This document shows positions 7,113 through 56,622 of a DNA stretch of 64,000 bases, one piece after another; position 1 is the stretch's first letter, and each line of letters opens with the position of its first letter. The notes under the pieces were generated by a model that worked only from the letters and a program-made list of their open reading frames with translations, was not told the DNA's origin and did no database searches. This DNA is from an uncultured Gammaproteobacteria bacterium. GTDB taxonomy: Bacteria; Patescibacteriota; Microgenomatia; Levybacterales; UBA12049. A program made the position numbers and the translations under genes. The stretch covers positions 7,688-71,687 of the forward strand of contig CAZWMJ010000002.1 in the NCBI GenBank assembly GCA_964635045.1, in the 5' to 3' direction.

Positions 7113-7154
7113 ATATTGGATATTGGTAGTATTTGTAGTATTGGTAGTATTATC
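7113..7154 (+). repeat. 42-nt ATATTGG/GTAGTATT tandem-repeat element (copy 1 of 2)
   Basis: ATATTGGATATTGGTAGTATTTGTAGTATTGGTAGTATTATC. Nearly identical to 35666-35708. Fills the metG-tatD spacer and supplies the TTGGTA and TAGTAT hexamers. Confidence 0.8.
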
Positions 7155-16159: not shown

Positions 16160-18862
<2,703 letters not shown>

Positions 18863-20556: not shown

Positions 20557-20603
20557 GACCCTGAGTTTATCGAAGGGTCAATACTGAGTGAAATTGAAGT
20601 ATT
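20557..20603 (+). repeat. two tandem hairpins of the GAG..TCGA-loop element family
   Basis: GACCCT-gagtttatcga-AGGGTC followed directly by AATACT-gagtgaaattga-AGTATT. Same loop design as TCCT-gagcttgtcga-AGGA at 41850-41868 and 53334-53352. Confidence 0.7.
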
Positions 20604-20629
20604 GACAAACCTAAGGAATATGTTATGAT
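20602..20629 (+). promoter_or_regulatory. promoter of the phd/relE-type operon, predicted leaderless
   Basis: TTGACA (20602-20607, overlapping the hairpin arm), 16 nt, TATGAT (20624-20629), then 6 nt to ATG 20636. Confidence 0.5.
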
Positions 20630-23483: not shown

Positions 23484-25116
23484 TAACCTCTTCGCTCTTG
23501 CCTAAAATCTCTTTCCAATTTCCAATTTTTTTGAAAAGCAGAATAAACATCATCGCCTCTTTCACATTGAAAAACCATGTGAGAAAAAGGTACAAACTCA
23601 ATCCAATTATACTCGAAATACCTGTCAAAAATAATAGATTTATTGTTCTGGTTGTATCAAAGACTAATTGATCAAGTAATTTAATCGGTATATACAACGC
23701 TATCCCCGTACATATTGTCGCTAAAGAAATCTTAATAAGCGGCAGAAAAAAAACTGTCTTTTTGAAACCGCCTATTTTATTATCCAAAAGCACCATCAAA
23801 ATAATAAAATTAGCCACACTTGTTACAGAATAAGCAATGGCAATACTTTCTACCCCAAAATGGTAATAAAGAATAAATATTGCGCTTAGCGCTATCATGG
23901 ATATTGTTGTTATTGTCCCTATAACAAGAGGAATTTTTGTATCGTGGAGGGCATAAAATCCACGATAAACAAGAGCTGTCAGCGCTTGGGCAAAAAGTGA
24001 AACAGAAAAGAAAGCCAGGGTTCTTCCGGTCAAAACAGTTGCCCCCCAATCAAACTGGGCGGCTCCATATATCAATCTGACAATGGGAATACGAAGGACT
24101 AAAAAAAGTACAGAAACCGGCAGAATTAAATAAAACATTTGTGTAAAACTGGTGATAAATGTTATCTTAAACTCTTCCGGCTGTTCCCGCTCTCTGGACA
24201 AAATAGGAAAAGCCGCTTGAGCAATGGTCTGGCCAAAAAGACCAATGGGAGCAAAAGCAAGAGTCTGTGCGTAATCAAAAATTACGTAATTTCTGCCGGG
24301 CGAGGAAAGAAAGGAAATAAGAATGACAGTGGCCAGAGATCCCAGCTGAAAAACGGCGATAGAAAGAGTACGCGGCCACATTAATTTTAGTATTTCCGAA
24401 ACGCCTTTTGAGGCAAACTTAAACGATGGAATAAAAATAAATCCAACTTTTTTGACCAAAGGCAATTGGAATAAAATAAAAAAAAGCGCTCCCAAAAGCG
24501 CGCCAACCACCGGAGCAAAAATCCCAAGTACCGAAGAAAAACCGACTATCCCTATTATGATTCCTAAATTGTAAAGGGAGGCCGCAATGCCCGGAACGAA
24601 AAAATGACTATATGACTGGAGAAGGGCGGAAAAAAATGTCCCCACGATAAAGAGAAATTGGCTAAAAATTAGAACTCTCATTAAGTTTGCCATCAACGCA
24701 ATCTCACTTGGAGAAAATCCCGATCCGAGATTTATCAGCTGCAAAAAAAATGGCGCAAAAATAAAAAGAATTACTGCTAGGAGAGAAAAAACAAGACAGC
24801 CTAACATCAGCAGTGCGGAAGCCACCCTATGAGCCTCTTCGTTTCTACCCTTTGCTAAATAATCGGAGAAGACCGGAATAAAAGAAGACGACAATGCGCC
24901 TGCAATAATAAGCTGGAACAACAGATCTGGCAGTTTGGCAGACGCTAAATATACTCCAAGTATATCTGATGGACCAAAAATAGAAACTAAAAGCCTTTGT
25001 CTTATCAAACCAAGTGTTTGGGAAAAAATGACAGTTGCCATAATGACAAATGCTGCGGAAAGAATGTTAGTCTGACGCCTTGATAAAATATCGAAGCCTT
25101 TTTGGATAAAATTCAT
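23458..25116 (-). CDS. murJ: lipid II flippase MurJ (MviN family)
   Basis: 552 aa with about 14 TM helices. N-terminal ...SQTLGLIRQRLLVSIFG is typical of MurJ. Confidence 0.85.
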   Translation of the reverse strand: MNFIQKGFDILSRRQTNILSAAFVIMATVIFSQTLGLIRQRLLVSIFGPSDILGVYLASAKLPDLLFQLIIAGALSSSFIPVFSDYLAKGRNEEAHRVASALLMLGCLVFSLLAVILFIFAPFFLQLINLGSGFSPSEIALMANLMRVLIFSQFLFIVGTFFSALLQSYSHFFVPGIAASLYNLGIIIGIVGFSSVLGIFAPVVGALLGALFFILFQLPLVKKVGFIFIPSFKFASKGVSEILKLMWPRTLSIAVFQLGSLATVILISFLSSPGRNYVIFDYAQTLAFAPIGLFGQTIAQAAFPILSREREQPEEFKITFITSFTQMFYLILPVSVLFLVLRIPIVRLIYGAAQFDWGATVLTGRTLAFFSVSLFAQALTALVYRGFYALHDTKIPLVIGTITTISMIALSAIFILYYHFGVESIAIAYSVTSVANFIILMVLLDNKIGGFKKTVFFLPLIKISLATICTGIALYIPIKLLDQLVFDTTRTINLLFLTGISSIIGLSLYLFLTWFFNVKEAMMFILLFKKIGNWKEILGKSEEVIDGTRINP

Positions 25117-25159: not shown

Positions 25160-25423
25160 ATGCCAGTAACAAAATCAGCCAAGAAAAAATTACGCAAGGA
25201 TAAAAAAAGAACGCTTCGCAACAAAAAGATAAAAGATCTTCTTAAAATTATTGTCAAAAAAGCCAAAAAGACTGCTCGCGAAAAAACTATACAAGAGGCC
25301 ATAAAAGCAATTGATAGGGCGTCTTCCAAGCATCTTATCCATAAAAACAAAGCGGCAAGACTAAAATCAAGCCTGTCAAAGCTCCTGATTAAAAAAGTAA
25401 AAAAACAAACCGCAAAAAAATAA
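25160..25423 (+). CDS. rpsT: 30S ribosomal protein S20
   Basis: 87 aa. MPVTKSAKKKLRKDKKRTLRNK... followed by ...HKNKAARLKSSLSK. Confidence 0.9.
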   Translation: MPVTKSAKKKLRKDKKRTLRNKKIKDLLKIIVKKAKKTAREKTIQEAIKAIDRASSKHLIHKNKAARLKSSLSKLLIKKVKKQTAKK

Positions 25424-25466
25424 CCTCTTTGACAAAAAGCAAAAATTCTCCTAGACTTAGGTTATC

Positions 25467-26006
25467 ATGCCCAATCAGACATCTTCAATAAATCTACTAA
25501 AAAAACAAGAAGTTAATTTTTTTGAAAAATTTATCAGTTGGGCTCTTACCATCGGACGAATTATTGTTATTATCACCGAAATAGTAGCGCTGTCGGCATT
25601 TATATATCGGTTTTCTCTTGATAGAAAGCTGATTGATTTACATAGTAAAATTAAGCAAGAGCAAACCATAGTCGGTCTCTCTAAAGCAAATGAGGAAAAA
25701 TACCGCAATCTTCAAGATAGACTTGCTCTGGCGGCAAAATATGATGAAAACGGAAAACAAACAGTGCAAATTTTTAAAGATGTCCTCAAACTGGCGCCGC
25801 AGGATTTTATCTTTGATACCGTAATAGTTTCTGAAAAAAATATCAGGATTGAAGCTCATGTACAAAGCGTCTTATCGCTGACAACATTTGTTAATCAGCT
25901 TAGAAACTATCCAAAAACAGAAACCGTAAGTATTGATAAAATAGAAAACAAAACTTCAAATGCAACAATTGTAGTTGTCATGACGGCGCTTATTAAAAAT
26001 AAATAA
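25467..26006 (+). CDS. PilN-like pilus/pseudopilus assembly protein
   Basis: 179 aa. INLLKKQ near the N-terminus, a single TM helix and a coiled segment. Confidence 0.5.
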   Translation: MPNQTSSINLLKKQEVNFFEKFISWALTIGRIIVIITEIVALSAFIYRFSLDRKLIDLHSKIKQEQTIVGLSKANEEKYRNLQDRLALAAKYDENGKQTVQIFKDVLKLAPQDFIFDTVIVSEKNIRIEAHVQSVLSLTTFVNQLRNYPKTETVSIDKIENKTSNATIVVVMTALIKNK

Positions 26007-26010
26007 TTAT

Positions 26011-26625
26011 ATGCAAATAAATAAAAGTCTTTTGAAGCTGTTGCCAAAAAAGAAATATCTGGAAATGCTACCCGACTTCAAACAGGAAAAAACACAAGCA
26101 TTTACCACGCTGGTGTTAACGCTTATTGCGCTTTCTATTTTTGTATTTTTTGCTATTAGCCCAACACTTTCCACCATCGCCCAATTAAAAAAAGAACTGG
26201 AAGACAATACTTTTATAGATCAACAACTGGTGCAAAAAATTGCCAATCTCTCTTTGCTTGGACAAAAATACAGTTTCCTCGCAAATGATATGCCAATTAT
26301 ACTTTCTGCTTTGCCTCAAAAACCGACTGTTCCGCTTTTAGCCGGTCAGATTCAGTCTCTTGCCAAAAAATATAACGTAAAGATAACAAGACTGCAATTG
26401 TTTCAAGTAGATATTTACCCACCAGTTAAAAATAGCGACAAAAGTCTATCTTTTGCCTTTTCTATTGAAAGTCAAGGTAATTCTTCTGATCTTTCCGCAT
26501 TTCTATCTTCGCTTGTTAACTTCGAGAGAGTTATTACCGTAGATACCATTTCCTTAAGTAAAGATTCCATCAGAAACGAACTACAAAAACTAAGTATTAG
26601 AGGCAGGGCTTATTTTAAAGAATAA
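26011..26625 (+). CDS. PilO-like assembly protein
   Basis: 204 aa with a TM helix, then a coiled coil (QLKKELEDNTFIDQQL) and an alpha/beta domain. Placement after the PilN-like gene supports the call. Confidence 0.45.
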   Translation: MQINKSLLKLLPKKKYLEMLPDFKQEKTQAFTTLVLTLIALSIFVFFAISPTLSTIAQLKKELEDNTFIDQQLVQKIANLSLLGQKYSFLANDMPIILSALPQKPTVPLLAGQIQSLAKKYNVKITRLQLFQVDIYPPVKNSDKSLSFAFSIESQGNSSDLSAFLSSLVNFERVITVDTISLSKDSIRNELQKLSIRGRAYFKE

Positions 26626-26633
26626 GTATCACT

Positions 26634-27002
26634 ATGAAACGTAATGATGTAATTTTTCTATTAGTATCAACTTTTGCTCTTGTCTTAGCTTGGATGTCAT
26701 TTAACATATACCATGCGTCTGTAAATTCAACTATCACTCCTGTTCAAAACATCCAGATTAAACCTATAAACCCAACCTTTGATATGAAAATCGTTGAGAA
26801 GATCAAAAAAAGAGAAAATGCGCCGCCAATATTTGAGGTAGAGAAGGGCAGCCAGGAACAAATTTCAACTCCTTCTGTTTTATTATCATCGCCAAATATA
26901 TCTTCACCAAGCGCAACTCCCACTCCTAATGTAACCCCCATTCCTAATGAACTGAAAATTGCAACATCGACAGGGAATATAATAATAAATCCAAATCCAT
27001 GA
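26634..27002 (+). CDS. membrane-anchored S/T/P-rich protein, unknown function
   Basis: 122 aa with an N-terminal TM helix. ATGA overlap with the next gene. Confidence 0.45.
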   Translation: MKRNDVIFLLVSTFALVLAWMSFNIYHASVNSTITPVQNIQIKPINPTFDMKIVEKIKKRENAPPIFEVEKGSQEQISTPSVLLSSPNISSPSATPTPNVTPIPNELKIATSTGNIIINPNP

Positions 27003-28390
27003 GAAATAGTTTTTGGAACAAACGAATGCCAACATTACTGGGAATCTTCATGATTACCATTGGTATCGGCATTACATCAATTCTGGTCAAAAACGGAGTT
27101 ATTGTTATCGGAAGGGCAGCTGGCGGAGAAATTCCACAGAATATACGCATCAGTAATATTCAAGATTCCTCATTCACTGTATCTTACACCACGGCGCAAA
27201 GCAATTTAGGCTCTATTTCTTTTGGCAAAGACAAAATAATGGGCAAGATCGCGCTTGACGACAGAGACCAACCAACAGGACTTGTAAAACCCTATCTGAC
27301 ACATCACGTCGCGATAAAAAATCTTGAACCCCAAACAAAATATTTTTTCTCTATTATCAGCGGGCAAACGACATTTCAAAACACGGAAAACTCTGATAAT
27401 CCTTTTGAAGTAACAACGGGACCAAGCCTTAAAAATCCACCTCCGACTCAACAGCCAATGGCGGGAAAAATCATTCTGGCAGACGGAAGTAATCCAAATG
27501 AAGCAATTGTGTATATAAGTATCCAGAACGCCCAAACAATATCTACCCTTGTAAAATCGGATGGCAGCTATATCCTGCCTTTAAATAATCTTTTAAAACA
27601 AGATTTTACCGCGTTTTTTTCTTTATCGCCTACTACTATTATACAAATGCTTGTCGTTGGACCATCAGGCGAGTCGAATATAAGACTTTTGGCAAATCAG
27701 ATTAACCCGGTGCCTATCATAACCCTGTCAAAAAATTATGATTTTACGAGTAGCACCTCTCCTGTGGCCACCAGCGATGCTTCTTTGAACTCAACAAAAA
27801 CTTCCTTTCCCAGTTTTTCAATAAATCCTAAAGAAAACACTGCGCCTCAGATCATAGCGCCTAAAAAGGATGAAAAATTTTCTGATCAGCAACCGCAATT
27901 TAGCGGCGCCGCTTCTCCCGGTGCAAAAATCAAAATCATTATTCATTCGGATGAAAACATACAAACACAAGTAGTTGTCGACCAAAACGGTCGCTGGACA
28001 TATCGACCCGGCAGTAAACTTTCTCCCGGTCAGCATACTATCCTGGTTTCCGCGCCCGATCAATTTGGTATTCTTAAAACAATAAGTCAAACCTTTACTG
28101 TCTACGCTGCCGGTACACAAGTTAATGAATCTGCCACTCCTTCCGCAACTCCAATGCTTACAATTACCCCAACAGTTATCGCAACTGCGTCCATCACCGT
28201 CTCTCCCACACCATCTTCTACTCCCACACCCACGCTGACCACAATACCAACTCCAACTAACACCACAATACATCCCACAATTTCCCCGCCCGGCAGTTCG
28301 ACTCTTATTACCGGCGGGATAGCGGCCGCGGCCAGCATCACACTGGGGCTTCTTCTTTTCCTCGTAACCCGTGGCAGAAAAGCTTTATGA
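26999..28390 (+). CDS. large surface protein (Fn3-like, CarboxypepD_reg-like and Ig-like domains) with C-terminal TM anchor
   Basis: 463 aa. ISNIQDSSFTVSYTT...LEPQTKYFFSI is Fn3-like. GKIILADGSNPNEAIVYIS...SDGSYILP is CarboxypepD_reg-like. PGAKIKIIIHSDENIQTQVVVDQNGRWTY is Ig-like. T/P-rich linker, then PPGSSTLITGGIAAAASITLGLLLFLVTRGRKAL. Confidence 0.55.
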   Translation: MRNSFWNKRMPTLLGIFMITIGIGITSILVKNGVIVIGRAAGGEIPQNIRISNIQDSSFTVSYTTAQSNLGSISFGKDKIMGKIALDDRDQPTGLVKPYLTHHVAIKNLEPQTKYFFSIISGQTTFQNTENSDNPFEVTTGPSLKNPPPTQQPMAGKIILADGSNPNEAIVYISIQNAQTISTLVKSDGSYILPLNNLLKQDFTAFFSLSPTTIIQMLVVGPSGESNIRLLANQINPVPIITLSKNYDFTSSTSPVATSDASLNSTKTSFPSFSINPKENTAPQIIAPKKDEKFSDQQPQFSGAASPGAKIKIIIHSDENIQTQVVVDQNGRWTYRPGSKLSPGQHTILVSAPDQFGILKTISQTFTVYAAGTQVNESATPSATPMLTITPTVIATASITVSPTPSSTPTPTLTTIPTPTNTTIHPTISPPGSSTLITGGIAAAASITLGLLLFLVTRGRKAL

Positions 28391-29673
28391 AAATTGCAAT
28401 TATCGGCGCTGGATTTACCGGACTGGCTGCTTCCTATCAATTAACAAAAAAAGGGCATGCTGTTACTATTTTTGAGAAAGATTCTGCCCCGGGCGGACTG
28501 GCTCTTGGCTACAAAGAAAAAAACTGGCAATGGTCTTTGGAAAAACATTATCATCACTTCTTTACCAATGATAAAAATATCTTACAATTAGCAAAAGAAA
28601 TAAAACATAACATTTTTACAAAACGCGCCAAAACCTCCGTTTATGTAAACGGCTCTATAGAAAGATTTGATTCTCCGCTTGATGTATTGACAACTTCTTT
28701 GCTATCCCCGATTGAACGTCTGCGAATGGGCCTTTTTTTAGGGCTTATGAAATACAATCCTCTATGGCGGCCATTGGAAAAATTTAAAGCCGCCGATATA
28801 TTGCCAAAATTGATGGGAAATAATCCTTATAAAACGCTTTGGCAGCCTCAACTTTTTAATAAATTTGGAGAATTTACAAATGATATTTCTCTTGCCTGGT
28901 TTTGGGCAAGAATAAAAAAAAGAACAAGAAGCCTTGCTTATCCGCAAGAAGGATTTCTGCATTTCGCCAATGCCCTTGTCAAAAGAATTGAACAAAACGG
29001 AGGAAAAATATTGTTTAATACAGAAGTGCAAGAAATAAAGAACGACGGTAAGGTAAAGGTTGCGTTTAAAACAATTGGAAATTGGAAATTGGAAATTGGA
29101 AATTACGACGCAGTCATTGTCACTCTTCCCTCTTTTCTGTTTATAAAAATTGCTCCCGGTCTGCCTATCGATTATCAAAACAAGCTGAAGCTTCTTAAGG
29201 GTCTTGGCGCAACCAATCTGATTCTCCGCCTAAAGAAACCCTTTTTAACCGATGGCACATACTGGCTGAGCATTTGTCAAAAAAACTCTCCCTTTGTGGC
29301 AATTGTTGAACATACCAACTTTATGGACAAAAAATATTACAACAACGAGCATATTGTCTATATCGGTAATTATTTACCTGCTAACCACCCTTACATGAAA
29401 ATGACTACTCCAGAACTTCTAAGAGTTTACCATCCATATTTAAAAAAAATAAATCCCAATTATGAATTCTCAATTATCGATTCTAAACTATTCTCTGTTC
29501 CCTTTGCTCAACCGATTATTCCCACCAACTACTCTAAAATCATTCCTTCATTTGAAACTCCTCTGCCAAATATATATCTTGCTAATATTCAACAAGTTTA
29601 TCCTTGGGATAGAGGAACCAACTACGCAGTTGAATTGGGAGAAAAAATAGCAGCACTGATTGCAGATCAATAA
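28387..29673 (+). CDS. NAD(P)/FAD-dependent oxidoreductase (amine-oxidase/phytoene-desaturase-like Rossmann fold)
   Basis: 428 aa. MKIAIIGAGFTGLAASYQL dinucleotide-binding motif and SLAYPQEGF. Contains the in-frame heptamer array at 29074-29104. Confidence 0.7.
   Translation: MKIAIIGAGFTGLAASYQLTKKGHAVTIFEKDSAPGGLALGYKEKNWQWSLEKHYHHFFTNDKNILQLAKEIKHNIFTKRAKTSVYVNGSIERFDSPLDVLTTSLLSPIERLRMGLFLGLMKYNPLWRPLEKFKAADILPKLMGNNPYKTLWQPQLFNKFGEFTNDISLAWFWARIKKRTRSLAYPQEGFLHFANALVKRIEQNGGKILFNTEVQEIKNDGKVKVAFKTIGNWKLEIGNYDAVIVTLPSFLFIKIAPGLPIDYQNKLKLLKGLGATNLILRLKKPFLTDGTYWLSICQKNSPFVAIVEHTNFMDKKYYNNEHIVYIGNYLPANHPYMKMTTPELLRVYHPYLKKINPNYEFSIIDSKLFSVPFAQPIIPTNYSKIIPSFETPLPNIYLANIQQVYPWDRGTNYAVELGEKIAALIADQ
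29074..29104 (+). repeat. (ATTGGAA)4ATT heptamer array, in-frame in the oxidoreductase gene
   Basis: A 31-nt string identical to 32818-32848. Encodes IGNWKLEIGN. Confidence 0.9.
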
Positions 29674-29683
29674 ATTTTAAAAC

Positions 29684-29714
29684 ATTGAAAATTGAAAATT
29701 ATAAATTGAAAATT
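29684..29714 (+). repeat. (ATTGAAA)-type heptamer array at the 5' end of the GT-C gene
   Basis: ATTGAAA ATTGAAA ATTATAA ATTGAAA ATT, the same 4-unit+ATT layout as 29074-29104. Shares the left flank TTTAAAACA with that copy. Confidence 0.85.
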
Positions 29715-31241
29715 ATTCTTTTATTAATCATCATTGGTATTTTCTTTCGTTTCTATAATCTTAACTGGGGTTCTCCTTTTTATTTTCACCCGGACGAGAG
29801 AAACATTGCTTCTGCCGTTTCTCAATTACAATTTCCCCAAAATCTAAATCCCCACTTTTTCGCCTATGGCTCATTTCCGATCTATATTATTTATATAGTA
29901 GGAGTCTTCTATAATCTGTTCTCCCATTTTCCAGCTTTCGCCGTTTCTTTTGAGCAGGCCATTTTGATCTCCCGATTTTTTTCTGCGATATTAAGTGTCG
30001 CTCTTATCCCAATGGTTTATCTCATTGGTAAACAAATCAAAGATAATACCACAGGACTTTTGGCGGCATTTTTAACAGTAACAAGTATTGGTCTTATTCA
30101 ATTTGCACATTTCGGCACATTCGAAATTTTGCTTACCTTTTTAGGTGTTTTACTTTTTTATTTCTCAATCAAACGAAACCTCGTTTTCACTGGCATAATT
30201 TTGGGGCTTTTACTCGCTACAAAAGTTTCAAGCATTGTTCTTTTGCCAATCCCCATTTTATCATTTCTACTTTACTTGGGAAAAAATAAGAAGATACGAA
30301 TTTATAAAATAACGACAAATATACTAACTTTTTGTGCCGCTACCCTGACAGCTTTTATTATCACCTCTCCTTTTGTATTAATAGATTTTCCATCATTTAT
30401 CGCAAGCATGAGATATGAATCATCTGTGGCTTTTGGCAGTCTTCCCGTTTTCTATACTGGTGAGTTTTTTAATACGGTACCGGTATTATTTCAATTTCTG
30501 CACATCTATCCATTTATCTTGAATCCTATCTTAACAATATTATTCATCCCGTCCTTACTTTACGTATCCCGCGGTGCTTTACAGAAAAAAAATGATTTTT
30601 ATTTATTGCTTATTGTTTCTTACTTATTATTATTTTTTTCTCAAAGCTTCTTGTTTGCAAAGTGGACAAGATATATGGTTCCCGGCTTACCGTTTATGTA
30701 TTTGATAATTGCTATCGGTATTAAAGACTGGTTAAACAGACAAGGCAGATATCTGATGTTGGGAATTATATTATTCGTGAGCGCTCTTTTTACCATCGCC
30801 TATTTCATAACTGTCCACGCAAAACCCGATACCAGAATTACGGCCGGCCTTTGGGCTGGGGAAAATATCCCCAGTAATAGTAAAATTTTAAGCGAAGTTT
30901 ATGATTTAGGCATTACCCCATTCAATCCCTATTTCAGTAATATCAAACTTTTTAATTTTTATGATGAACTTTTGCCAATTACTAATAATTACGATTATAT
31001 TATTCTTACCAGTCAACGCTTGTTAAAAACTCGTTTAACAAAAAAAATAAAATTTCCGCAGGGAAATAAGTTTTATGACTCGTTATTAAATGGGGCATTA
31101 AGATTTAAAAAAGTTTATGAAACTCCCTGTGATATTTTTTGCAAAATTACTTACTTGGGAGATCCGGTTTTTTCACTCGAAGAAACCGCAAACGTATTTG
31201 ATCGCCCTACAGTATTTGTTTTTAAAAAATTAAAAGAATGA
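29685..31241 (+). CDS. GT-C-fold membrane glycosyltransferase (ArnT/PMT_2-like), paralogue 1
   Basis: 518 aa, multi-TM. FYFHPDERNIA first-loop motif, shared with the paralogue's FHLHPDERAIV. The only candidate start codons are TTG 29685 or TTG 29706, both inside the heptamer array. Confidence 0.65.
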   Translation: MKIENYKLKIILLLIIIGIFFRFYNLNWGSPFYFHPDERNIASAVSQLQFPQNLNPHFFAYGSFPIYIIYIVGVFYNLFSHFPAFAVSFEQAILISRFFSAILSVALIPMVYLIGKQIKDNTTGLLAAFLTVTSIGLIQFAHFGTFEILLTFLGVLLFYFSIKRNLVFTGIILGLLLATKVSSIVLLPIPILSFLLYLGKNKKIRIYKITTNILTFCAATLTAFIITSPFVLIDFPSFIASMRYESSVAFGSLPVFYTGEFFNTVPVLFQFLHIYPFILNPILTILFIPSLLYVSRGALQKKNDFYLLLIVSYLLLFFSQSFLFAKWTRYMVPGLPFMYLIIAIGIKDWLNRQGRYLMLGIILFVSALFTIAYFITVHAKPDTRITAGLWAGENIPSNSKILSEVYDLGITPFNPYFSNIKLFNFYDELLPITNNYDYIILTSQRLLKTRLTKKIKFPQGNKFYDSLLNGALRFKKVYETPCDIFCKITYLGDPVFSLEETANVFDRPTVFVFKKLKE

Positions 31242-32947
31242 AAATTAATTTACCACTTATAATTATATTATTACTTGCTTCTCTCCTTAGATTGTATGGA
31301 TTCAATTGGGATCAAGGATTCCATCTTCACCCAGATGAAAGAGCCATTGTCATGTTTACCACTCCTTTACAATTCCCCCAAAGTATTATCGAATTTCTCT
31401 CACCGCAAAGCAGCTTTAATCCGCATTTTTTTGCCTATGGCAGTTTTCCTCTATATTTTCTTAAAATTGCCGGAAATATAGCCGGTATCATCAACCCTCT
31501 TTTTACCCAATATGGCCATATAAATCTTTTGGGGCGAGTCCTATCGGCAATTTTTGATCTTTCAAGTCTAACTCTTCTCTTTTTCCTTGGCAAAAAACTT
31601 TTTAATAAAAATATCGCTCTTTTGGCGGCATTTTTTTATGCCATAAGTGTCCTGCCTATTCAACTGTCTCACTTTTATGCCGTTGACACGCCTCTAACAT
31701 TTTTTGTCTTGTTGACTCTCTATCAATTAATCAATTTTTATCAAAAACCAACTGTTGGAAAATCGATGCTGGTCGGTTTTTTCTTTGGACTATCTCTTGC
31801 TACCAAAACAAGCGCCATAGTGCTACTTACATCTATTGGCATGGCTCTCGTGATTGACTTTTTACTCATAATTCTTAAAAATCCTCATCGCCCGCATATA
31901 TGGCTTCCGCATATGCCAACCTTTATCAAAAAACTGCTTGTTGATTTGGTAATCATAATGTCTACGGCCTTTATAACTTTTATAATCTTTGAGCCATACG
32001 CTCTTATCGACTTTAAGGCCTTCTGGGAACAAAATATGCAGCAGTACCGTATGACTCACGATGCTTTTACCTTTCCCTATACCCTTCAATATGTTGGAAA
32101 AATTCCGTATTGGTACGAGCTAAAAAATATTTTTCTCTGGGGTCTGGGACCATTCATCGCTACATTTTCTTTTTTAGGAACAATCTTTGTAGTCTTTCAA
32201 ACAATAAAACAATCCAACAATAGAACAATAATTGTCTTAACTTTTTTTTGGACTTATTTTCTGACAGTTGGTAATTTTGCCATCGGTTTTATGCGCTACA
32301 TGCTCCCCCTTTACCCACTTCTTTGCCTCTTCGCCGCAGCGTTTTTCTTTCGATTATATAATCGTCTTCCTGCTCATTTAGGTAAACTAGTTGCTAGTGG
32401 CTATTTGCTAGTTGCTATTATTTGGCCTTTATCTTTTGTTAATATCTATCAAAAACCCAACACCCGCGTTCTCGCATCGGAGTGGATAAATAATAATATT
32501 TCTCAAGGTTTAACTATTGCCATTGAACATTGGGATGACTCTCTTCCTCTTTTTGGTCAAGAAAAATATCACATGATAACTTTGCCTCTTTATGATCCCG
32601 ATACAGAATCAAAATGGGCAATAATCAATCAACAACTGTCAAAAACTGATTACATTGTCATTGCCTCAAATCGTCTTTATGTACCTTTACAAAAACTTAC
32701 AAATTGTCAAACACTTCCCCCAGGCAAGTGTTATCCATTAACTACAAAATATTATCAAACTCTTTTTAATAGTTCTTTGGGATTTAAAAAGGTTGCAGAG
32801 TTTTCGGTTTATCCTACATTGGAAATTGGAAATTGGAAATTGGAAATTCGCGACGACGTCGCGGATGAGTCCTTCACCGTCTACGATCACCCAAAGGTAA
32901 TGATTTTTAAAAACATTGGGAAAAAATATCCTCCAATGATACAATAG
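31238..32947 (+). CDS. GT-C-fold membrane glycosyltransferase (ArnT/PMT_2-like), paralogue 2
   Basis: 569 aa. MKINLPLIIILLL...FHLHPDERAIV and a C-terminal ADESFTVYDHPKVMIF. Contains the arrays at 32391-32418 and 32818-32848. Confidence 0.65.
   Translation: MKINLPLIIILLLASLLRLYGFNWDQGFHLHPDERAIVMFTTPLQFPQSIIEFLSPQSSFNPHFFAYGSFPLYFLKIAGNIAGIINPLFTQYGHINLLGRVLSAIFDLSSLTLLFFLGKKLFNKNIALLAAFFYAISVLPIQLSHFYAVDTPLTFFVLLTLYQLINFYQKPTVGKSMLVGFFFGLSLATKTSAIVLLTSIGMALVIDFLLIILKNPHRPHIWLPHMPTFIKKLLVDLVIIMSTAFITFIIFEPYALIDFKAFWEQNMQQYRMTHDAFTFPYTLQYVGKIPYWYELKNIFLWGLGPFIATFSFLGTIFVVFQTIKQSNNRTIIVLTFFWTYFLTVGNFAIGFMRYMLPLYPLLCLFAAAFFFRLYNRLPAHLGKLVASGYLLVAIIWPLSFVNIYQKPNTRVLASEWINNNISQGLTIAIEHWDDSLPLFGQEKYHMITLPLYDPDTESKWAIINQQLSKTDYIVIASNRLYVPLQKLTNCQTLPPGKCYPLTTKYYQTLFNSSLGFKKVAEFSVYPTLEIGNWKLEIRDDVADESFTVYDHPKVMIFKNIGKKYPPMIQ
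32391..32418 (+). repeat. (TTGCTAR/TGGCTAT)4 heptamer array inside the GT-C gene
   Basis: TTGCTAG TGGCTAT TTGCTAG TTGCTAT encodes VASGYLLVAI. Related to 34004-34026. Confidence 0.75.
32818..32848 (+). repeat. (ATTGGAA)4ATT heptamer array, in-frame near the 3' end of the GT-C gene
   Basis: Identical to 29074-29104. Encodes LEIGNWKLEI, which is absent from the aligned C-terminus of the paralogue 29685-31241. Followed by the palindrome CGCGACGACGTCGCG. Confidence 0.9.
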
Positions 32948-32956
32948 CTTTTACAC

Positions 32957-34003
32957 ATGCAGAAAAAAAATGTATTTATTACCGGCGGGGCTGGGTTTTT
33001 GGGCGTGCACTTGGCCAGAAGATTTTTGAAAGACGGTAACAAAGTAACTCTTTTTGATTTAGCGGATTTAGACGCGCAAGATCTTATCGGAAAAGTGGAC
33101 TTTGTCAAAGGCGACATAAGAAACACCAAAGCCCTGCAAAAAGCGTTGAAAAACCAACACTTCGTTGTGCATGCGGCCGCCGCCTTGCCTATCCAACAAT
33201 CCAAAAAACTTATTTTCAGCGTTAACGTCGATGGGACAAAAAATGTCTTAGATTCTGCTTTGCAGAATAAAATAATGCGTTTGGTTTTTATTTCCACAAC
33301 GGCTGTATATGGAGTTCCCAAACACCTACCAGAAACAGAGGAAGCGCCGCTTGATCCAATTGGTTACTACGGAGAATCAAAAATAGCAGGAGAAAACCTT
33401 TGTAGGGATTATATAAAAAAAGGATTGCAGATAAATATTATTCGTCCAAAAACCTTTTTAGGACCGGAGCGACTCGGCGTTTTTGAATTATGGTTTGAAG
33501 CAATTTATTCCGGCAAAAAAGTATTTATTTTAGGAGACGGAAATAATCCATATCAGCTTTTGGCTGTCTCCGATGTTGTTGATGCGATAGAAAAAGCTCT
33601 CTCAAGCAGAATCCACGGAGAAATTTTTAATATAGGAGCCAAAGAATTTGGCACATGGAAAACCGATCTTGGGGCAGTAATTAAAGAAGCAAAATCAAAA
33701 TCAAGAATTTTCGGGTTCCCTGTTTTACCCTCTCAAATAATACTGGGGATTCTTGAATCAGTGCACCTTTCTCCCATCGCCGCCTGGCATTACAAAACAA
33801 TAGCTGTTCCCTCATATGTATCTACTGAAAAAGCAGAAAAATTACTAAATTGGCATCCCAAAAAATCAAATAAGGATCTTCTTATCGAGAGCTACAAATG
33901 GTATTCTAAACACAGAGGTGAAATTATCGGAAAAGTAGGTACGGGGCATCGCGTCGGCTGGAATTTTAAGGTACTAAATTTAATAAAACGCTTTTTTAAC
34001 TAA
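32957..34003 (+). CDS. NAD-dependent epimerase/dehydratase (extended SDR)
   Basis: 348 aa. VFITGGAGFLGVHLARRF and the YGESK catalytic Y-x3-K. Confidence 0.85.
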   Translation: MQKKNVFITGGAGFLGVHLARRFLKDGNKVTLFDLADLDAQDLIGKVDFVKGDIRNTKALQKALKNQHFVVHAAAALPIQQSKKLIFSVNVDGTKNVLDSALQNKIMRLVFISTTAVYGVPKHLPETEEAPLDPIGYYGESKIAGENLCRDYIKKGLQINIIRPKTFLGPERLGVFELWFEAIYSGKKVFILGDGNNPYQLLAVSDVVDAIEKALSSRIHGEIFNIGAKEFGTWKTDLGAVIKEAKSKSRIFGFPVLPSQIILGILESVHLSPIAAWHYKTIAVPSYVSTEKAEKLLNWHPKKSNKDLLIESYKWYSKHRGEIIGKVGTGHRVGWNFKVLNLIKRFFN

Positions 34004-34026
34004 TGGCTAGTTGCTAATTGCTAATG
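34004..34026 (+). repeat. (TTGCTAA)-type heptamer array filling an intergenic spacer
   Basis: TGGCTAG TTGCTAA TTGCTAA TG, lying between stop 34003 and ATG 34028. Confidence 0.75.
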
Positions 34027-34027
34027 T

Positions 34028-34567
34028 ATGAACTTAGGTTTTGATTTTGATAAAATTTTGATCAATTATCCGCCGTTTATTCCGCACGGACTTATTGATA
34101 GATTATACAAACAAAAGAAAAACGGCATTCTTTTATACAGAATTCCTTCAAGACCGGAACAATTACTAAGACTGATTACTCATCAGCCAATCTTCAGACC
34201 TCCCATCATCGAAAATATACTGTTTGTAAAAAAAATCTCCAAACAAAGACAATATAGATGTTATCTCCTGTCAAGCAGATTTAGTTTCCTAAAAAATGTC
34301 ACCGACAAACTTATTAAGCAACACCAGTTTCATAAAATTTTTGACGGCTTATACTTTAATTTTAAAAATAATCAACCTCATCTATTCAAAAACGAGTCGA
34401 TAAAGAAATTAAAAATCGACCGCTACGTAGATGACGATTTGCCTCTTTTGGAATTTGTGGCGGGGAATAATCCAAAAACAATATTCTTCTGGCTAAATAA
34501 AACAAAATCTAAAAAACTAAAAAAGAATCTTTTTGCCATTACGGAACTTTCCCAAATCTTTACCTAG
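34028..34567 (+). CDS. HAD-like hydrolase (weak call)
   Basis: 179 aa. N-terminal GFDFDKIL (DxD motif I), LLSSR (motif II-like) and DRYVDDDLPLL (motif IV-like). Confidence 0.4.
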   Translation: MNLGFDFDKILINYPPFIPHGLIDRLYKQKKNGILLYRIPSRPEQLLRLITHQPIFRPPIIENILFVKKISKQRQYRCYLLSSRFSFLKNVTDKLIKQHQFHKIFDGLYFNFKNNQPHLFKNESIKKLKIDRYVDDDLPLLEFVAGNNPKTIFFWLNKTKSKKLKKNLFAITELSQIFT

Positions 34568-34571
34568 TTAT

Positions 34572-36653
34572 ATGTATCTGTCTGATCTATTATTCGTTAT
34601 TCAGTGGTGGATCGTGTTCTTCATAATTGGCATAATTTTTTTGCCTTTAATTAGTTTTATATTTTCGGAGTTTTTCGACCGGGGATACATATTTGCCAAA
34701 ATAATAGGAATCGCAAGTCTCACCTACGCTGTTTTTTTATTTGGGGTTCTAAAAATTCTTCCCTTTACCCAACTGACAGTAATTTTACTTTTAAGTATTG
34801 CCTTAATCCTTAATCTTTTAATATTTTCTTATCATAATGTTTTTTCTCTCTTTAAAAAACATTGGAGAATTTTTATTTTTGAGGAATTTTTATTTTTGGG
34901 AGGATTGCTCTTTTGGTCATTCATCAGAGCTCACCAGCCGGACATTCATGGATTGGAAAAATACATGGATTTTGGTTTCATCAATTCCATATTGCGAAGT
35001 GAGTTCTTCCCCCCGCTTGATATGTGGTTCCCTCCACTTTCTATCAACTATTATTATTTTGGACATCTGATCACTGCTGTCTTAACAAAATTATCCAACA
35101 TCCCCTCTCCCATAACATTTAACCTGATGGTGGCAGCAATCTTCGCTTTTACTTTTACCGGCTCATTTTCTATAGGTTTTAATCTTATTACTCAAATTAA
35201 ACTAAACGCTAAACGCTCTACCCTATACACTATCATTGGTGGATTATTTACAGCCTTTTTAGTAACATTAACCGGTAATCTTCACACCATCTATACTTTC
35301 TTTAAGCCGTACGATACTCAAAACCCTCTTCCTTTTTGGCAACTAATCTTTTCGCCATCAACCTTTCCCAATAATTACTGGTATCCAAACGCCACTCGCT
35401 TTATCCCTTTTACCATTCATGAATTTCCGCTTTATTCCTTTGTGGTGTCAGACTTGCACGGTCATGTTCTTGATATACCTGTTGTCTTATTAACAATAGC
35501 CTTCTTATTTAATATCTTAATATCTAAATCTCTTAACATCTTTAAAATCTTATTATTGTCGCTCCTGATGGCAGTTATGTACATGACTAATGCTTGGGAC
35601 GGTATAATTTATTTCGGATTAACCGCTTTGATATTATTTTATTTGTTAAGAAAATCCCCATTGAGATATTTGATATTGGTAGTATTGGTACTTATTGGTA
35701 GTATTATCTTCTCTCTTCCTTTTAATCTTAATTTTAAACCATTCGTAGCCGGCATTGGCGTCCTTTGCGCCCCACAATTTATGGCCAATATTGGCAAGTT
35801 AGGACCGTTCCTCTTTGAAGTAAATCACTGCCAAAAATCACCCTGGTGGCAAATTTTCATTCTCTATGGGTTTTTTTATTTTTGGGTGGTGACCTTTATA
35901 TTTTTCCTGATTAAAAAAAGATCGGATAAACGTCAGATTTTCCCCTCCGACATTTTTATATTTTTATTGATTATTTTCTCCAGTATTTTAATCGTCATTC
36001 CCGAATTTATCTATGCCAAAGATATTTACCCTGCTCACTACAGAGCAAACACCATGTTTAAGCTGGTCTATCAATCTTTTATCATGCTGTCGATCTCATC
36101 GGGATACATTATTTTTAAAGTGGCAATAAATATAAAGAAAAAAATATTGGCTGTCTGTCTTTTATCTTTAGTTGCCATTTATTCTTTTTTTGCCATCAAT
36201 TCATATTATGGAAATTTGGAAAAATACAAAGGACTTGACGGACTTTCATATCTTGCTAATTTATATCCAACCGATTATAAAACAATTCTTTGGATCAGAG
36301 ATAACATAAAAAACCAACCAATTATTCTTGAAGCAAACGGAGACAGTTATACCGATTACGCCAGAGTCTCAGCCAACACCGGATTGCCAACGGTGATCGG
36401 CTGGCCGGTCCATGAATGGCTGTGGAGAGGAAGTTATGATGTGGCGGCTCCCCGAATTGCCGATGTGCAAAAACTCTATGAAACAGCGGATCTTAATATT
36501 ACTAAGCAATTAATAAACAAATATAAAATTTCCTTAATTTTTGTTGGCGATATGGAATATCAAAAATACCCCAATCTGGATGAACAAAAATTCGAAGCCC
36601 TAGGGAAAATTATCTTTCAGAGTAAAAACACCAAAGTTTATCAGCTAAAGTGA
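34572..36653 (+). CDS. large polytopic membrane protein, DUF2298 / Chlor_Arch_YYY-type (putative GT-C-like glycosyltransferase)
   Basis: LSINYYYFGHLITAVL matches the YYY-domain signature. More than 15 TM helices, with a soluble C-terminal domain. ATG 34572 is preferred over the track start at 34533, which overlaps the previous gene. Confidence 0.6.
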   Translation: MYLSDLLFVIQWWIVFFIIGIIFLPLISFIFSEFFDRGYIFAKIIGIASLTYAVFLFGVLKILPFTQLTVILLLSIALILNLLIFSYHNVFSLFKKHWRIFIFEEFLFLGGLLFWSFIRAHQPDIHGLEKYMDFGFINSILRSEFFPPLDMWFPPLSINYYYFGHLITAVLTKLSNIPSPITFNLMVAAIFAFTFTGSFSIGFNLITQIKLNAKRSTLYTIIGGLFTAFLVTLTGNLHTIYTFFKPYDTQNPLPFWQLIFSPSTFPNNYWYPNATRFIPFTIHEFPLYSFVVSDLHGHVLDIPVVLLTIAFLFNILISKSLNIFKILLLSLLMAVMYMTNAWDGIIYFGLTALILFYLLRKSPLRYLILVVLVLIGSIIFSLPFNLNFKPFVAGIGVLCAPQFMANIGKLGPFLFEVNHCQKSPWWQIFILYGFFYFWVVTFIFFLIKKRSDKRQIFPSDIFIFLLIIFSSILIVIPEFIYAKDIYPAHYRANTMFKLVYQSFIMLSISSGYIIFKVAINIKKKILAVCLLSLVAIYSFFAINSYYGNLEKYKGLDGLSYLANLYPTDYKTILWIRDNIKNQPIILEANGDSYTDYARVSANTGLPTVIGWPVHEWLWRGSYDVAAPRIADVQKLYETADLNITKQLINKYKISLIFVGDMEYQKYPNLDEQKFEALGKIIFQSKNTKVYQLK
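35666..35708 (+). repeat. 43-nt ATATTTG/GTAGTATT element (copy 2 of 2), inside a CDS
   Basis: ATATTTGATATTGGTAGTATTGGTACTTATTGGTAGTATTATC, compared with 7113-7154. Encodes RYLILVVLVLIGSII. Confidence 0.8.
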
Positions 36654-56465: not shown

Positions 56466-56550
56466 GAACTGGCACAGGCACCAGTCGGCGCCTGGCTGCG
56501 GTCCAATTCTTTCCTTGCATGGCGACAGCAAAGTGCAGAATTGTACCTTG

Positions 56551-56622
56551 CTCCGCGGGTAGGACTCGAACCTACGGCCAATCGCTTAACAGGCGACCGC
56601 TCTACCACTGAGCTACCGCGGA
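56551..56622 (-). tRNA. tRNA-Asn (anticodon GTT)
   Basis: Folded by hand on the minus strand: acceptor TCCGCGG/CCGCGGA, D arm GCTC-AGTGGTA-GAGC, anticodon arm GTCGC-CTGTTAA-GCGAT, variable TGGCC, T arm GTAGG-TTCGAGT-CCTAC, discriminator G. No encoded CCA. Confidence 0.9.

Follow-up and report, generated by a model that had tools for sequence, protein, structure and literature searches.

Heptanucleotide arrays of a known kind, translated in three frames within two cell-envelope genes of a Patescibacteria genome

We have analysed a 64-kb stretch of a Patescibacteria genome (the window), in which a cell-envelope gene cluster carries the 31-mer ATTGGAAATTGGAAATTGGAAATTGGAAATT at two sites 3.7 kb apart. 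The sequence check confirms that both copies, each (ATTGGAA)4ATT on the plus strand, are perfect and in frame, as the sequence-only reading had reported. The copy at 29074–29104 encodes residues 230–240 of an FAD-dependent oxidoreductase of the Amino_oxidase/DAO family (Pfam; ORF 28387–29673, plus strand, 428 aa), where it reads IGNWKLEIGN(Y). The copy at 32818–32848 encodes residues 527–537 of a GT-C fold glycosyltransferase (PMT_2/PMT in Pfam, GT39-like; ORF 31238–32947, plus strand, 569 aa), called GT-C paralogue 2, where it reads (T)LEIGNWKLEI. At both sites TRF gives a period of 7, 4.4–4.6 copies and 100% matches, with uninterrupted perfect stretches of 32 nt at the first and 31 nt at the second. 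The pattern of two ATTGGAA units has 7 matches in the window against 0.18 expected, and none of 100 shuffles gave 7. Judged by eye, nothing in the sequence convincingly resembles a promoter within the gene or a slippery site for −1 frameshifting. Rfam and ARAGORN, applied to the whole window, returned a tRNA-Asn (56550–56622) as the sole match and nothing at or near the arrays; since this tRNA is far off, an association of the arrays with structured RNA or tRNA was rejected.

In total, the window contains two ATTGGAA arrays, one AACGCAA array, and three degenerate period-7 arrays, and its relatives reuse units with an AATT core. The AACGCAA array, (AACGCAA)4AAC, is also perfect over 31 nt (40472–40502, plus strand, 4.4 units) and lies in frame in a FemAB-family gene (40236–41186) with the peptide TQNAKRKTQN. 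Among the degenerate ones, an ATTGAAA-type array made of a 14-nt unit in two copies (29684–29716, plus strand) spans the start of GT-C paralogue 1; an in-frame TGA is abolished by its deviating unit, and the L121, L207, and L208 orthologues lack this array. The CTAGTTG-type array (32387–32417, plus strand) is within GT-C paralogue 2 (KLVASGYLLVA), with its deviations located where TAG would come from a perfect unit. The CTAATTG-type array (34000–34025, unstranded) spans the stop codon of ORF 32957–34003 and extends into the spacer before ORF 34028–34567. With at least three perfect copies as the threshold, the window has three arrays of period 7, one of period 4, and none of periods 5, 6, or 8–12.

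As a control, we used a two-unit match, ATTGGAAATTGGAA, at 23513–23526 on the minus strand, in the MurJ C-terminal tail (KKIGNWKEIL). The MurJ orthologues keep the peptide K[VL]GNW[KR]EIL with variable codons (GGC, GGA, GGG). Since the codons differ among orthologues, this copy was rejected as an array and is regarded as a conserved peptide. It had not been mentioned in the sequence-only reading.

The ATTGGAA arrays are heptamer repeats at the DNA level that are read in three frames, and the unit is indeed free of stops in all six frames. The latter property, however, is shared by 35% of composition-weighted heptamers, and was rejected as distinctive. Common flanks (ACA on the left and ACGACG on the right) had also been claimed, but these are out of register, since the actual flanking letters differ between the two copies: ATTGG is preceded by AAAACA at one and by CCTAC at the other, and the final ATT is followed by ACGACGCAG and CGCGACGACG, respectively. 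The claimed letters are part of coding sequence that is conserved at each locus (YDAV and RDDV). In addition, paralogue 1 had been said to lack the segment, while BLASTP pairs the non-repetitive PCDIFCKITYLGD, of about equal length, with PTLEIGNWKLEIRD. Orthologues of the GT-C protein and the oxidoreductase likewise have a hairpin of similar length at the array site. With a counterpart segment present in paralogue 1 and in the orthologues, the idea of a clean insertion was rejected.

Modelling of the inserts, which the sequence-only reading had suggested, locates both arrays in beta-hairpins. The oxidoreductase array is modelled as the loop and one strand of a hairpin (pLDDT about 90), and the GT-C array as a strand TLEI, a GN turn, and a strand WKLE. 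That is, the models place both arrays as small beta-hairpins, and the arrays are best read as structural filler (hairpin cassettes), not as switches.

We then turn to related Patescibacteria, using an unbiased set of 800 kb of orthologue loci picked irrespective of repeats and counting arrays with at least three perfect copies. Period 7 is represented by 20 arrays against 0.1 expected, an excess of about 200-fold, and periods 5, 6, and 8 by 3, 2, and 2 arrays. The 20 arrays comprise 18 different units, none of them ATTGGAA, and about 16 of the 20 are within ORFs longer than 1 kb. ATTGGAA arrays are not a special element but one of many heptamer types. A genome-wide scan seeded with the ATTGGAA pattern covered at least 120 loci, and the abundance of ATTGGAA in it is not comparable to that of other units. 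Among the matches listed, ATTGGAA arrays occur on more than 120 genome contigs, mostly from Patescibacteria and from many of its classes, and about 80% of the arrays are inside long ORFs. The seeded loci have 70 further period-7 arrays with 42 units, versus 1–5 arrays for periods 5, 6, 8, and 9. In a scan of viral sequences, the pattern turned up on just 11 contigs.

The arrays are rather uniform in size. A typical one has four full units plus a few bases (30–34 nt), and a count over the window and five relatives puts 19 of 26 arrays at 30–35 nt. Among the matches listed, the commonest form is ATT...ATT of 31 nt, the right boundary is ...GGAAATT in 75 of 125 arrays while the phase of the left boundary varies, and the orientation relative to transcription is about 79 antisense to 21 sense elsewhere, with all arrays of the window in sense. 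Array sites recur in LeuRS, MnmA, PolA, GT4, and GT2 genes, and there is no sign of an enrichment in envelope genes. Among DUF2298 orthologues, arrays are present in some and absent in others. When the two copies of the window and 123 arrays among the matches listed were compared, their flanks shared nothing in register, and no hallmarks of mobile elements (termini, target duplications) were found at the arrays compared. The idea of a dispersed element thus holds in one sense, as ATTGGAA recurs at many unrelated loci and forms a dispersed class, but not in the sense of a discrete mobile element.

At orthologous sites, the array DNA of the oxidoreductase is identical in L205 and L206, and 30 nt of the GT-C array are identical in L207, L208, and L086. 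Within the arrays 9 of 9 codons match, compared with 47–52% over the whole genes (P about 1e-3 per pair), and synonymous sites are saturated elsewhere in the two array-bearing genes. The orthologous sites are occupied in genomes that are 58–68% identical for these proteins, which speaks against a recent insertion, and distant lineages share the array peptide, an outcome that the sequence-only reading itself had listed as a refutation, since it means an ancestral sequence. Every orthologue examined that carries the array has 4.4 units, and each cluster of array-bearing orthologue proteins is a single sequence across 2–7 contigs. Judged from these alignments, the ATTGGAA arrays appear to be old and of fixed length; a dispersed mobile element and phase variation are not supported.

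On the other hand, not all sites are kept in this way. L211 has a decayed array with synonymous changes, and L209 and L210 have ATTGAAA-type units, with a single deviant unit exactly where TGA would appear. The closest oxidoreductase relative, L121 (82% identity), has a different and longer loop at the array site. Other lineages have GTCAGGA ×5.4, AATCAGC ×4.4, or GTCAAAA/GCCAAAA at the oxidoreductase site, and the local sequence and the unit are both different in L137 and L130. At the FemAB site, AACGCAA in the window corresponds to ATTGGAA or ATTTCAA arrays in orthologues. Arrays of opposite orientation at one site were rejected as proof of insertion, since AATTGGA and AATTTCA are two substitutions apart in register. 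Perfect arrays are found in two separate clades, and decayed arrays in both too. In an NJ ordering of the GT-C orthologues the array-bearing sequences look scattered, although this crude tree gives a hint only. A palindromic insert, ATTCTGG-N5-CCAGAAT, was also seen in the oxidoreductase loop of other lineages; it is absent from the window.

Overall, we consider it fairly probable that the two ATTGGAA arrays are independent members of a lineage-wide class of heptanucleotide repeats, akin to the cyanobacterial STRRs and the LSSRs of Mrazek, made by slippage, probably re-homogenised, and filtered by selection. Slipped-strand mispairing or out-of-register repair in a 7-base register would create the arrays and repeatedly re-homogenise them. 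Selection would then retain arrays whose unit has no stops in the three frames read, whose net length preserves the frame (e.g., a 1.4-unit seed plus three units, i.e., 21 nt or 7 aa, making 31 nt), and whose site tolerates a hairpin. Once a heptamer array is homogenised, each of its bases would serve as codon position 1, 2, and 3, and no unit-wide change would be silent, while the near neighbours ATTGAAA, ATTTGAA, and ATTAGAA would all yield stops. Taken together, these two properties would make ATTGGAA a viable attractor, and such an attractor would explain why one perfect unit recurs in both genes of the window and across separate clades. As a counterpoint to slippage, stepwise gain of single units means a frameshift, so that neither a three-unit gain nor homogenisation free of lethal intermediates is accounted for. 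Some arrays, such as that of L211, decay as ordinary sequence, which means that homogenisation, if it is real, does not reach every array.

The kind of repeat is already known, and on the best reading it is the nucleotide-perfect persistence that is of interest. Two observations are not explained by the simple decay of slippage products, namely that arrays at orthologous sites stay nucleotide-perfect although the synonymous background is saturated, and that the four-unit regularity holds without G-quadruplex capacity. We suggest tentatively, and with more doubt than belief, that an ongoing process at the DNA level in Patescibacteria, either slippage or out-of-register repair with a 7-base register, creates arrays and keeps them nucleotide-perfect in essential genes past synonymous saturation. 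If so, a sequence read in all three frames would be evolving in concert, and a stop-codon filter would narrow the arrays down to a few attractor units, ATTGGAA among them. As ready-made beta-hairpin cassettes, the arrays would reshape protein surface loops, and something other than the G-quadruplex would underlie the general preference for four units in bacterial heptamer repeats.

The perfect conservation could also have other sources: the DNA or RNA itself may be under selection, or a conserved seed may have expanded again and again. Under the latter, the arrays would not be retained ancient ones but independent recent expansions, e.g., from ATTGGAAATT, which lies in the conserved I-G-N-Y codons immediately ahead of the YD.V.VTLP motif. 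The array does adjoin and overlap the conserved motif (IxN[YF]D is family-wide), the commonest 31-nt form, ATT...ATT, equals a 10-nt seed plus 21 nt, the unit differs where the local sequence differs (L137, L130), and the two clades with perfect arrays hold decayed ones as well. We regard this as unlikely, however, since the non-array members have a hairpin of similar length with a 7-aa periodicity ([MI]xNx[KQ][WS]x[MI]xN[FY]D), which looks like an old decayed array and not a bare seed; no seed-only orthologue, exactly 7 aa shorter, was seen, and the GT-C site has no obvious seed. If instead the nucleotides and not the peptide were selected, the array DNA or its transcript would itself be functional, e.g., as a platform for a heptamer-reading protein of the cold-shock/OB-fold or nucleoid type. 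That the arrays have no synonymous differences, while about 50% of codons mismatch over the remainder of both genes, is in line with this, as are the spread of ATTGGAA over many Patescibacteria classes, the preferred right boundary (...GGAAATT in 75 of 125 among the matches listed), and CspB, which reportedly binds heptamer repeats with one protein per unit (discussed in PMC4679880). But the unit is not generally conserved (18 units in the 20 unbiased arrays, none ATTGGAA), the same gene site holds different heptamers, and the orientation is inconsistent (about 79 antisense to 21 sense elsewhere among the matches listed, all sense in the window). The array density is also low, and arrays are left to decay in sister lineages. 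We therefore judge a functional DNA or transcript to be quite unlikely.

The sequence-only reading had proposed an insertable dispersed heptamer element in envelope genes, with slipped-strand phase variation of surface glycans as the outcome. Two identical 31-mers within one cell-envelope cluster, a unit length that is not a multiple of 3, the presence and absence of arrays among DUF2298 orthologues, and a precedent for coding heptanucleotide phase variation in NeuO (PMC13001214) all fit with it. However, the conservation among orthologues largely refutes this model and leaves it very unlikely: the flanks differ in register, and the arrays have just 4.4 units, fixed orthologously in relatives at synonymous saturation, with a single sequence in each array-bearing protein cluster. 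They are located late in the genes (residues 230/428 and 528/569), and the same arrays occur in essential or housekeeping genes such as LeuRS, MnmA, and PolA. As for mobility, the same gene sites carry GTCAGGA, AATCAGC, AACGCAA, or ATTTCAA in other lineages, and about 42 other units exist in the same genomes. It is hardly credible, finally, that the DNA periodicity is incidental to conservation of a hairpin at the protein level combined with codon bias. The peptide is indeed conserved in many orthologues and modelled as a hairpin, but selection on a peptide cannot produce three identical 7-mers (21 nt) in three frames. True peptide conservation, as in GNW[KR]EIL of MurJ, uses GGC, GGA, and GGG codons, the gene-wide codon identity is about 50% only, and period 7 is in 200-fold excess.

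Across the candidate phyla radiation, conserved proteins pervasively contain translated heptamer repeats of this type. The orthologous arrays form a natural data set on repeat birth, homogenisation, and decay, and let one ask whether a property of replication or repair fixes the 7-base register. In practice, the recurrent low-complexity peptides that the arrays encode (such as IGNWKLE, FPISNFQ, and KSQIPNP) can mislead homology searches, alignments, and the annotation of Patescibacteria, and heptamer arrays in Patescibacteria genes should not be taken for contingency loci.

Reports of heptanucleotide repeats go back to 1990 and 2007, when they stood as a puzzling feature of certain bacterial genomes, located for the most part in intergenic DNA. 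Our search, covering part of the literature, found no report on the exact sequence or on heptamer repeats in Patescibacteria. The palindromic elements of Rickettsia, reportedly described by Ogata and colleagues in 2000 as in-frame selfish DNA in protein-coding genes, are similar in being repeats tolerated in frame at surface-permissive positions of conserved proteins. They are, however, palindromic, mobile, about 100–150 bp long, and of conserved sequence, while the window arrays are 31-nt tandem heptamers without termini. SSR contingency loci, including neuO, share a non-triplet unit in coding sequence, with three units making one protein heptad. The tracts of those loci are long, vary between strains, and sit close to the promoter or 5′ end of genes for surface or virulence traits, whereas the window arrays have 4.4 units, invariant in orthologues and late in the gene, and their like occur in housekeeping genes too.

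A close likeness is also seen to the LSSRs of Mrazek, Guo & Shah 2007, as they are presented in PMC4679880 and PMC4692102: a 7-nt unit, period 7 above the neighbouring periods, and tandem arrays of few units scattered through the genome. Heptanucleotides are the commonest class of long SSRs there, and polymerase slippage with a contact of roughly 7 nt is the proposed cause (Mrazek 2007, summarised in PMC4679880; PMC4692102). According to the same accounts, these LSSRs come from Burkholderia, Xanthomonas, cyanobacteria, and actinobacteria, with non-triplet units disfavoured in coding regions, while the Patescibacteria arrays are mostly in frame within genes of tiny genomes, some nucleotide-perfect across deep divergence. 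The cyanobacterial STRR sequences and the GGGNATC and GGGGA(C/T)T arrays of Xanthomonas and Nostoc are described as G-rich, G-quadruplex-capable, mainly intergenic, and scarce in ORFs (Rehm et al. 2015, PMC4692102). GGGNATC arrays reportedly favour four units, which is ascribed there to G4 formation (PMC4692102), but ATTGGAA, AACGCAA, ACTTATC, and similar units cannot form a G4 and show the same regularity. The TAACTGA repeats of Beggiatoaceae, cyanobacteria, and Bacteroidetes (MacGregor 2015, PMC4679880) are likewise heptamers, with 2–6 copies per set, one unit at many loci in distant phyla, a mechanism given as unknown, and a translated form predicted to be antiparallel beta structure. As reported there, TAACTGA has forward stops and lies mostly in intergenic positions just upstream of start codons, suggesting translational regulation (PMC4679880), while the Patescibacteria arrays are intragenic and translated. 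The main departure from the described STRR and LSSR cases is one of location: those are mainly intergenic, and these arrays are not.

The 31-mer ATTGGAAATTGGAAATTGGAAATTGGAAATT is found, perfect and in frame, at both 29074-29104 and 32818-32848, as the sequence-only reading had stated, and for each site TRF gives a period of 7, 4.4-4.6 copies and matches of 100%. With a two-unit probe, 7 overlapping matches are obtained in the window, against a mean of 0.18 in dinucleotide-preserving shuffles, none of 100 shuffles reaching 7. The first array lies in the FAD oxidoreductase ORF (28387-29673, 428 aa; Pfam Amino_oxidase, DAO and NAD_binding_8), where it reads ..FKTIGNWKLEIGNYDAVIVTLP.., and the second in that of GT-C paralogue 2 (31238-32947, 569 aa; Pfam PMT_2 and PMT, GT-C fold), where it reads ..YPTLEIGNWKLEIRDDVADESF.. 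in the protein. The best named homologues belong to Candidatus Levybacteria and the Patescibacteria group, which makes the source of the window a candidate-phyla-radiation bacterium.

The two copies had also been said to share their flanks, but these are out of register (AAAACA versus CCTAC before the first ATT; ACGACGCAG versus CGCGACGACG after the last ATT), and those of each array are locally conserved coding sequence. Nor does GT-C paralogue 1 cleanly lack the segment, since BLASTP puts its non-repetitive PCDIFCKITYLGD opposite PTLEIGNWKLEIRD. The claimed freedom from stops in six frames is true of ATTGGAA but not distinctive, being shared by 35% of composition-weighted heptamers. A two-unit copy absent from that reading lies on the minus strand at 23513-23526, in the MurJ tail KKIGNWKEIL; we rejected it as an array, for its orthologues keep the peptide K[VL]GNW[KR]EIL with differing codons (GGC, GGA and GGG; AGA for AAA). 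It is ordinary protein conservation, and serves as a control.

The gene order of 25160-36653 is common to the window and the relatives L122, L124, L207, L208 and L211 (L numbers denote loci of other genomes, P numbers orthologous proteins): MurJ, S20, PilN/PilO-like, Big_13 protein, FAD oxidoreductase, GT-C/PMT_2 paralogues (varying from one to three), epimerase, DUF2298, LytR-CpsA-Psr, TIM, UvrD and FemAB. GC skew on the plus strand of 1-64000 is negative nearly throughout (cumulative -2.7), and since this covers 25-41 kb too, where genes are plus-strand, the coding strands here have more C than G.

Both array-bearing proteins were modelled by AlphaFold with family alignments as input, and both arrays are predicted to lie in beta-hairpins of soluble domains. 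In the oxidoreductase model (mean pLDDT 80.8, ~90 over the array), strand 223-229 is followed by loop 230-234 (IGNWK) and strand 235-240 (LEIGNY). In that of GT-C paralogue 2 (mean pLDDT 83.4, 81-84 over the array), strands 527-530 (TLEI) and 533-536 (WKLE) are joined by a two-residue GN turn, and the array is placed in the C-terminal domain, past the last transmembrane helix.

Occupancy of both sites is old. The array peptide is exact in the oxidoreductase orthologues P0031 and P0044 (66% and 63% identical overall), and in many others it is decayed yet recognisable (IGNSKLEIGN, IGNLKFKIEN, IENLKLKIEN, IGNLKFEIRN). A hairpin of about this length is present even in ordinary members of this family, and it repeats every 7 residues, [MI]xNx[KQ][WS]x[MI]xN[FY]D. 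In the closest relative (82% identity) the loop differs and is longer. Of the GT-C family, P0123, P0127, P0150, P0179, P0211, P0231 and the scan match L086 have LEIGNWKLEI or a close variant; the majority have TIPFLNIPIND, about two residues shorter, and some LSTFNFQLSI. Distant orthologues do share the peptide, which the sequence-only reading had named as the sign of an ancestral sequence and as evidence against itself.

In addition, the identity extends to the nucleotides. At the oxidoreductase site, L205 has exactly the window's ATT GGA AAT TGG AAA TTG GAA ATT GGA AAT, and L206 differs solely in the first codon (TTT); at the GT-C site, L207, L208 and L086 have exactly TTG GAA ATT GGA AAT TGG AAA TTG GAA ATT. 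Gene-wide, the window shares the same codon with these orthologues at just 47-52% of identical amino acids, and synonymous sites are therefore saturated. Within the arrays codon identity is 9/9 (8/8 for L206), with P ~1e-3 to 2e-3 per pair in several independent pairs, for orthologues picked by the exact peptide, a choice that sets no condition on synonymous sites but favours little-changed arrays. This array identity is beyond what protein-level selection can explain. Perfect arrays occur in two separate oxidoreductase sub-clades (the window; L205/L206), with decayed ones in each as well. The L211 array has synonymous GGT and TTA changes and also W>S and G>E, and in L210 and L209 the units drift to ATTGAAA, with a single deviant unit, ATTTAAA, exactly where ATTGAAA would give an in-frame TGA. 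Among GT-C orthologues, the array-bearing members seem scattered in a neighbour-joining ordering, a crude and incomplete tree.

The same positions also hold other repeats. Exactly where the window's oxidoreductase has its array, other lineages have (GTCAGGA)5.4, (AATCAGC)4.4, alternating GTCAAAA/GCCAAAA, or ATTAGAA units. One site in the FemAB family (after IFIQLEPN..) has a heptamer array in all 4 genomes examined, with a different unit each time: a perfect 31-nt (AACGCAA)4AAC, in frame, in the window (40472-40502); EIGNWKLEIGN (ATTGGAA) in L124, where a second array (ISNFKFQISN) stands further on (20269-20304 and 20573-20604); ISNFKFQISN (ATTTCAA) in L208 (17450-17482); and in L020 a composite of KSQISNPKSQN, then DWKLEIGNWKL. 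DUF2298 relatives bear composite insertions of ~33 residues from several adjoining heptamer arrays (ATTTGGA twice, AAATCAC, ATTGGAA), at 18303-18334, 18625-18656 and 18718-18749 in L122 and at 13944-14062 in L207; the DUF2298 proteins of the window (34533-36653) and of L205 are without them.

An in-frame palindrome, ATTCTGG-N5-CCAGAAT (peptide ..DSGQARM.., often after PRHSGKPKAHPES), was seen in other Patescibacteria and nowhere within the 64-kb window. The oxidoreductase hairpin loop bears it in L126 (1260-1278), L135 (8731-8749), P0056, P0106, P0033, P0051 and P0068, and the L129 copy (2981-2999) is outside the oxidoreductase match. As a hairpin-type insert, it recalls the Rickettsia palindromic elements.

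Tandem arrays of a class specific to period 7 are abundant in this lineage. If perfect arrays with 3 or more copies are counted, the window, covering 64 kb of this genome, has three of period 7, none of periods 5, 6 or 8-12, and one of period 4. Degenerate arrays were also found, of ATTGAAA type spanning the start of GT-C paralogue 1 (29684-29716) and of CTAGTTG type within paralogue 2 (32387-32417), and a CTAATTG-type array lies at 34000-34025. To guard against ascertainment bias, we took 80 metagenomic loci with oxidoreductase orthologues (800 kb), picked by two peptides that are conserved and have no relation to the repeat. With the same cut-off of 3 copies, perfect period-7 arrays number 20 in this sample, against 0.1 expected from first-order Markov simulations, with 3, 2 and 2 for periods 5, 6 and 8 and none for periods 9-12. 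The 20 arrays comprise 18 different units, ATTGGAA not among them, and ~16 lie in open frames >1 kb; the phenomenon is therefore general, period-7-specific, for the most part intragenic and independent of any one sequence. Of the 26 period-7 arrays in the window together with five related loci, 19 have a length of 30-35 nt (four full units and a few bases). A 9-nt unit, TATTGGTAG, repeated 3.4 times with ~45 nt of similar surroundings, was noted at 7121-7151, directly upstream of ORF 7157-8014, and at 35674-35705 within the DUF2298 ORF, where it reads ILVVLVLIGSII in a transmembrane segment.

An exact (ATTGGAA)3 scan of one genome per species matched at least 120 contigs; being seeded with this pattern, it does not allow unit frequencies to be compared. 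The matches listed, to which the following refers, are overwhelmingly from Patescibacteria, spread over many classes (Levy-, Woese-, Moran-, Falkow-, Saccharibacteria and others). The length of the perfect runs is 22-45 nt, with modes at 31 and 27; 75 of 125 terminate in ...GGAAATT, and ATT...ATT of 31 nt is the commonest form. Long ORFs contain ~80% of the arrays, ~79 antisense (coding strand AATTTCC, FPISNFQ) versus ~21 sense (IGNWKLE). The hosts are ordinary proteins, such as MnmA, LeuRS (two different sites), DNA polymerase I, and GT4 and GT2 glycosyltransferases, and the sites recur across different genomes. Arrays often run on into adjoining degenerate heptamers, giving peptides like KSQIQNS and KIPNSKSQIPN, and the listed loci hold 70 more perfect period-7 arrays of 42 other units, with just 1-5 for periods 5, 6, 8 and 9. 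Intergenic ATTGGAA arrays directly adjoin a short GC-rich hairpin (..ccgttcacgg..) in L038 (two arrays), L049, L066, L087 and L119, and at other loci, e.g. the Saccharibacteria LeuRS sites, the array is followed by a hairpin such as cctcgcat..atgcgagg; hairpin and heptamers may form a composite repeat. In the viral collection (IMG/VR), (ATTGGAA)3 occurs in 11 contigs (L212-L222).

The sequence-only reading was right that the arrays arose at the DNA level, code independently of frame and are more than a local accident. Its reading of them as an element lacks support, as there are no termini or shared flanks, the units are many, and other heptamers take the same sites. Its phase variation of surface-glycan genes lacks support too, given a unit number invariant among orthologues, arrays that are short and late in genes, and their presence in essential housekeeping genes. 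The arrays are translated in three frames and sited in permissive hairpins. They would be born by slipped-strand mispairing in a 7-base register, which Mrazek and colleagues, in the summary of PMC4679880, put forward to explain the excess of heptanucleotide repeats in general. An array would survive if its unit is stop-free in the three frames read, if the net length preserves the frame (the modal 31 nt would result when three units, 21 nt or 7 residues, are added to a 10-nt seed such as ATTGGAAATT), and if the hairpin is tolerated at the site.

Some arrays would then stay homogeneous by ongoing out-of-register exchange among units. Because each base of a homogenised heptamer array is codon position 1, 2 and 3, no unit-wide change is silent, and stops arise in each of the one-step neighbours ATTGAAA, ATTTGAA and ATTAGAA. 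This makes ATTGGAA a viable end-state, which would account for one perfect unit being found both at two genes of the window and in separate clades. Some arrays whose consensus unit contains a stop deviate exactly at the stop-creating position (window 29684-29716 and 32387-32417; L209), and selection-limited homogenisation fits such arrays better than insertion of a finished block. The slippage model has two less probable rivals: selection acting directly on the motif as DNA or RNA, and a conserved seed from which arrays re-expand repeatedly. Its own weak points are real: one-unit steps frameshift the gene, and the array is left to decay in some lineages.

Our literature search, partial in coverage, found no paper on heptamer arrays in Patescibacteria or on the (ATTGGAA)n sequence. 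The closest known systems are the cyanobacterial STRRs, the heptanucleotide long SSRs of Mrazek et al., the GGGNATC arrays of Xanthomonas and Nostoc, in which four units are preferred (PMC4692102), and the TAACTGA arrays of Beggiatoaceae, cyanobacteria and Bacteroidetes (PMC4679880), all described as mainly intergenic. The four-unit preference of GGGNATC has been ascribed to G-quadruplex formation (PMC4692102), a cause that cannot apply to ATTGGAA, AACGCAA or ACTTATC. The main interest of the present arrays is their location within genes, their recurrent hot spots and their nucleotide-perfect persistence.
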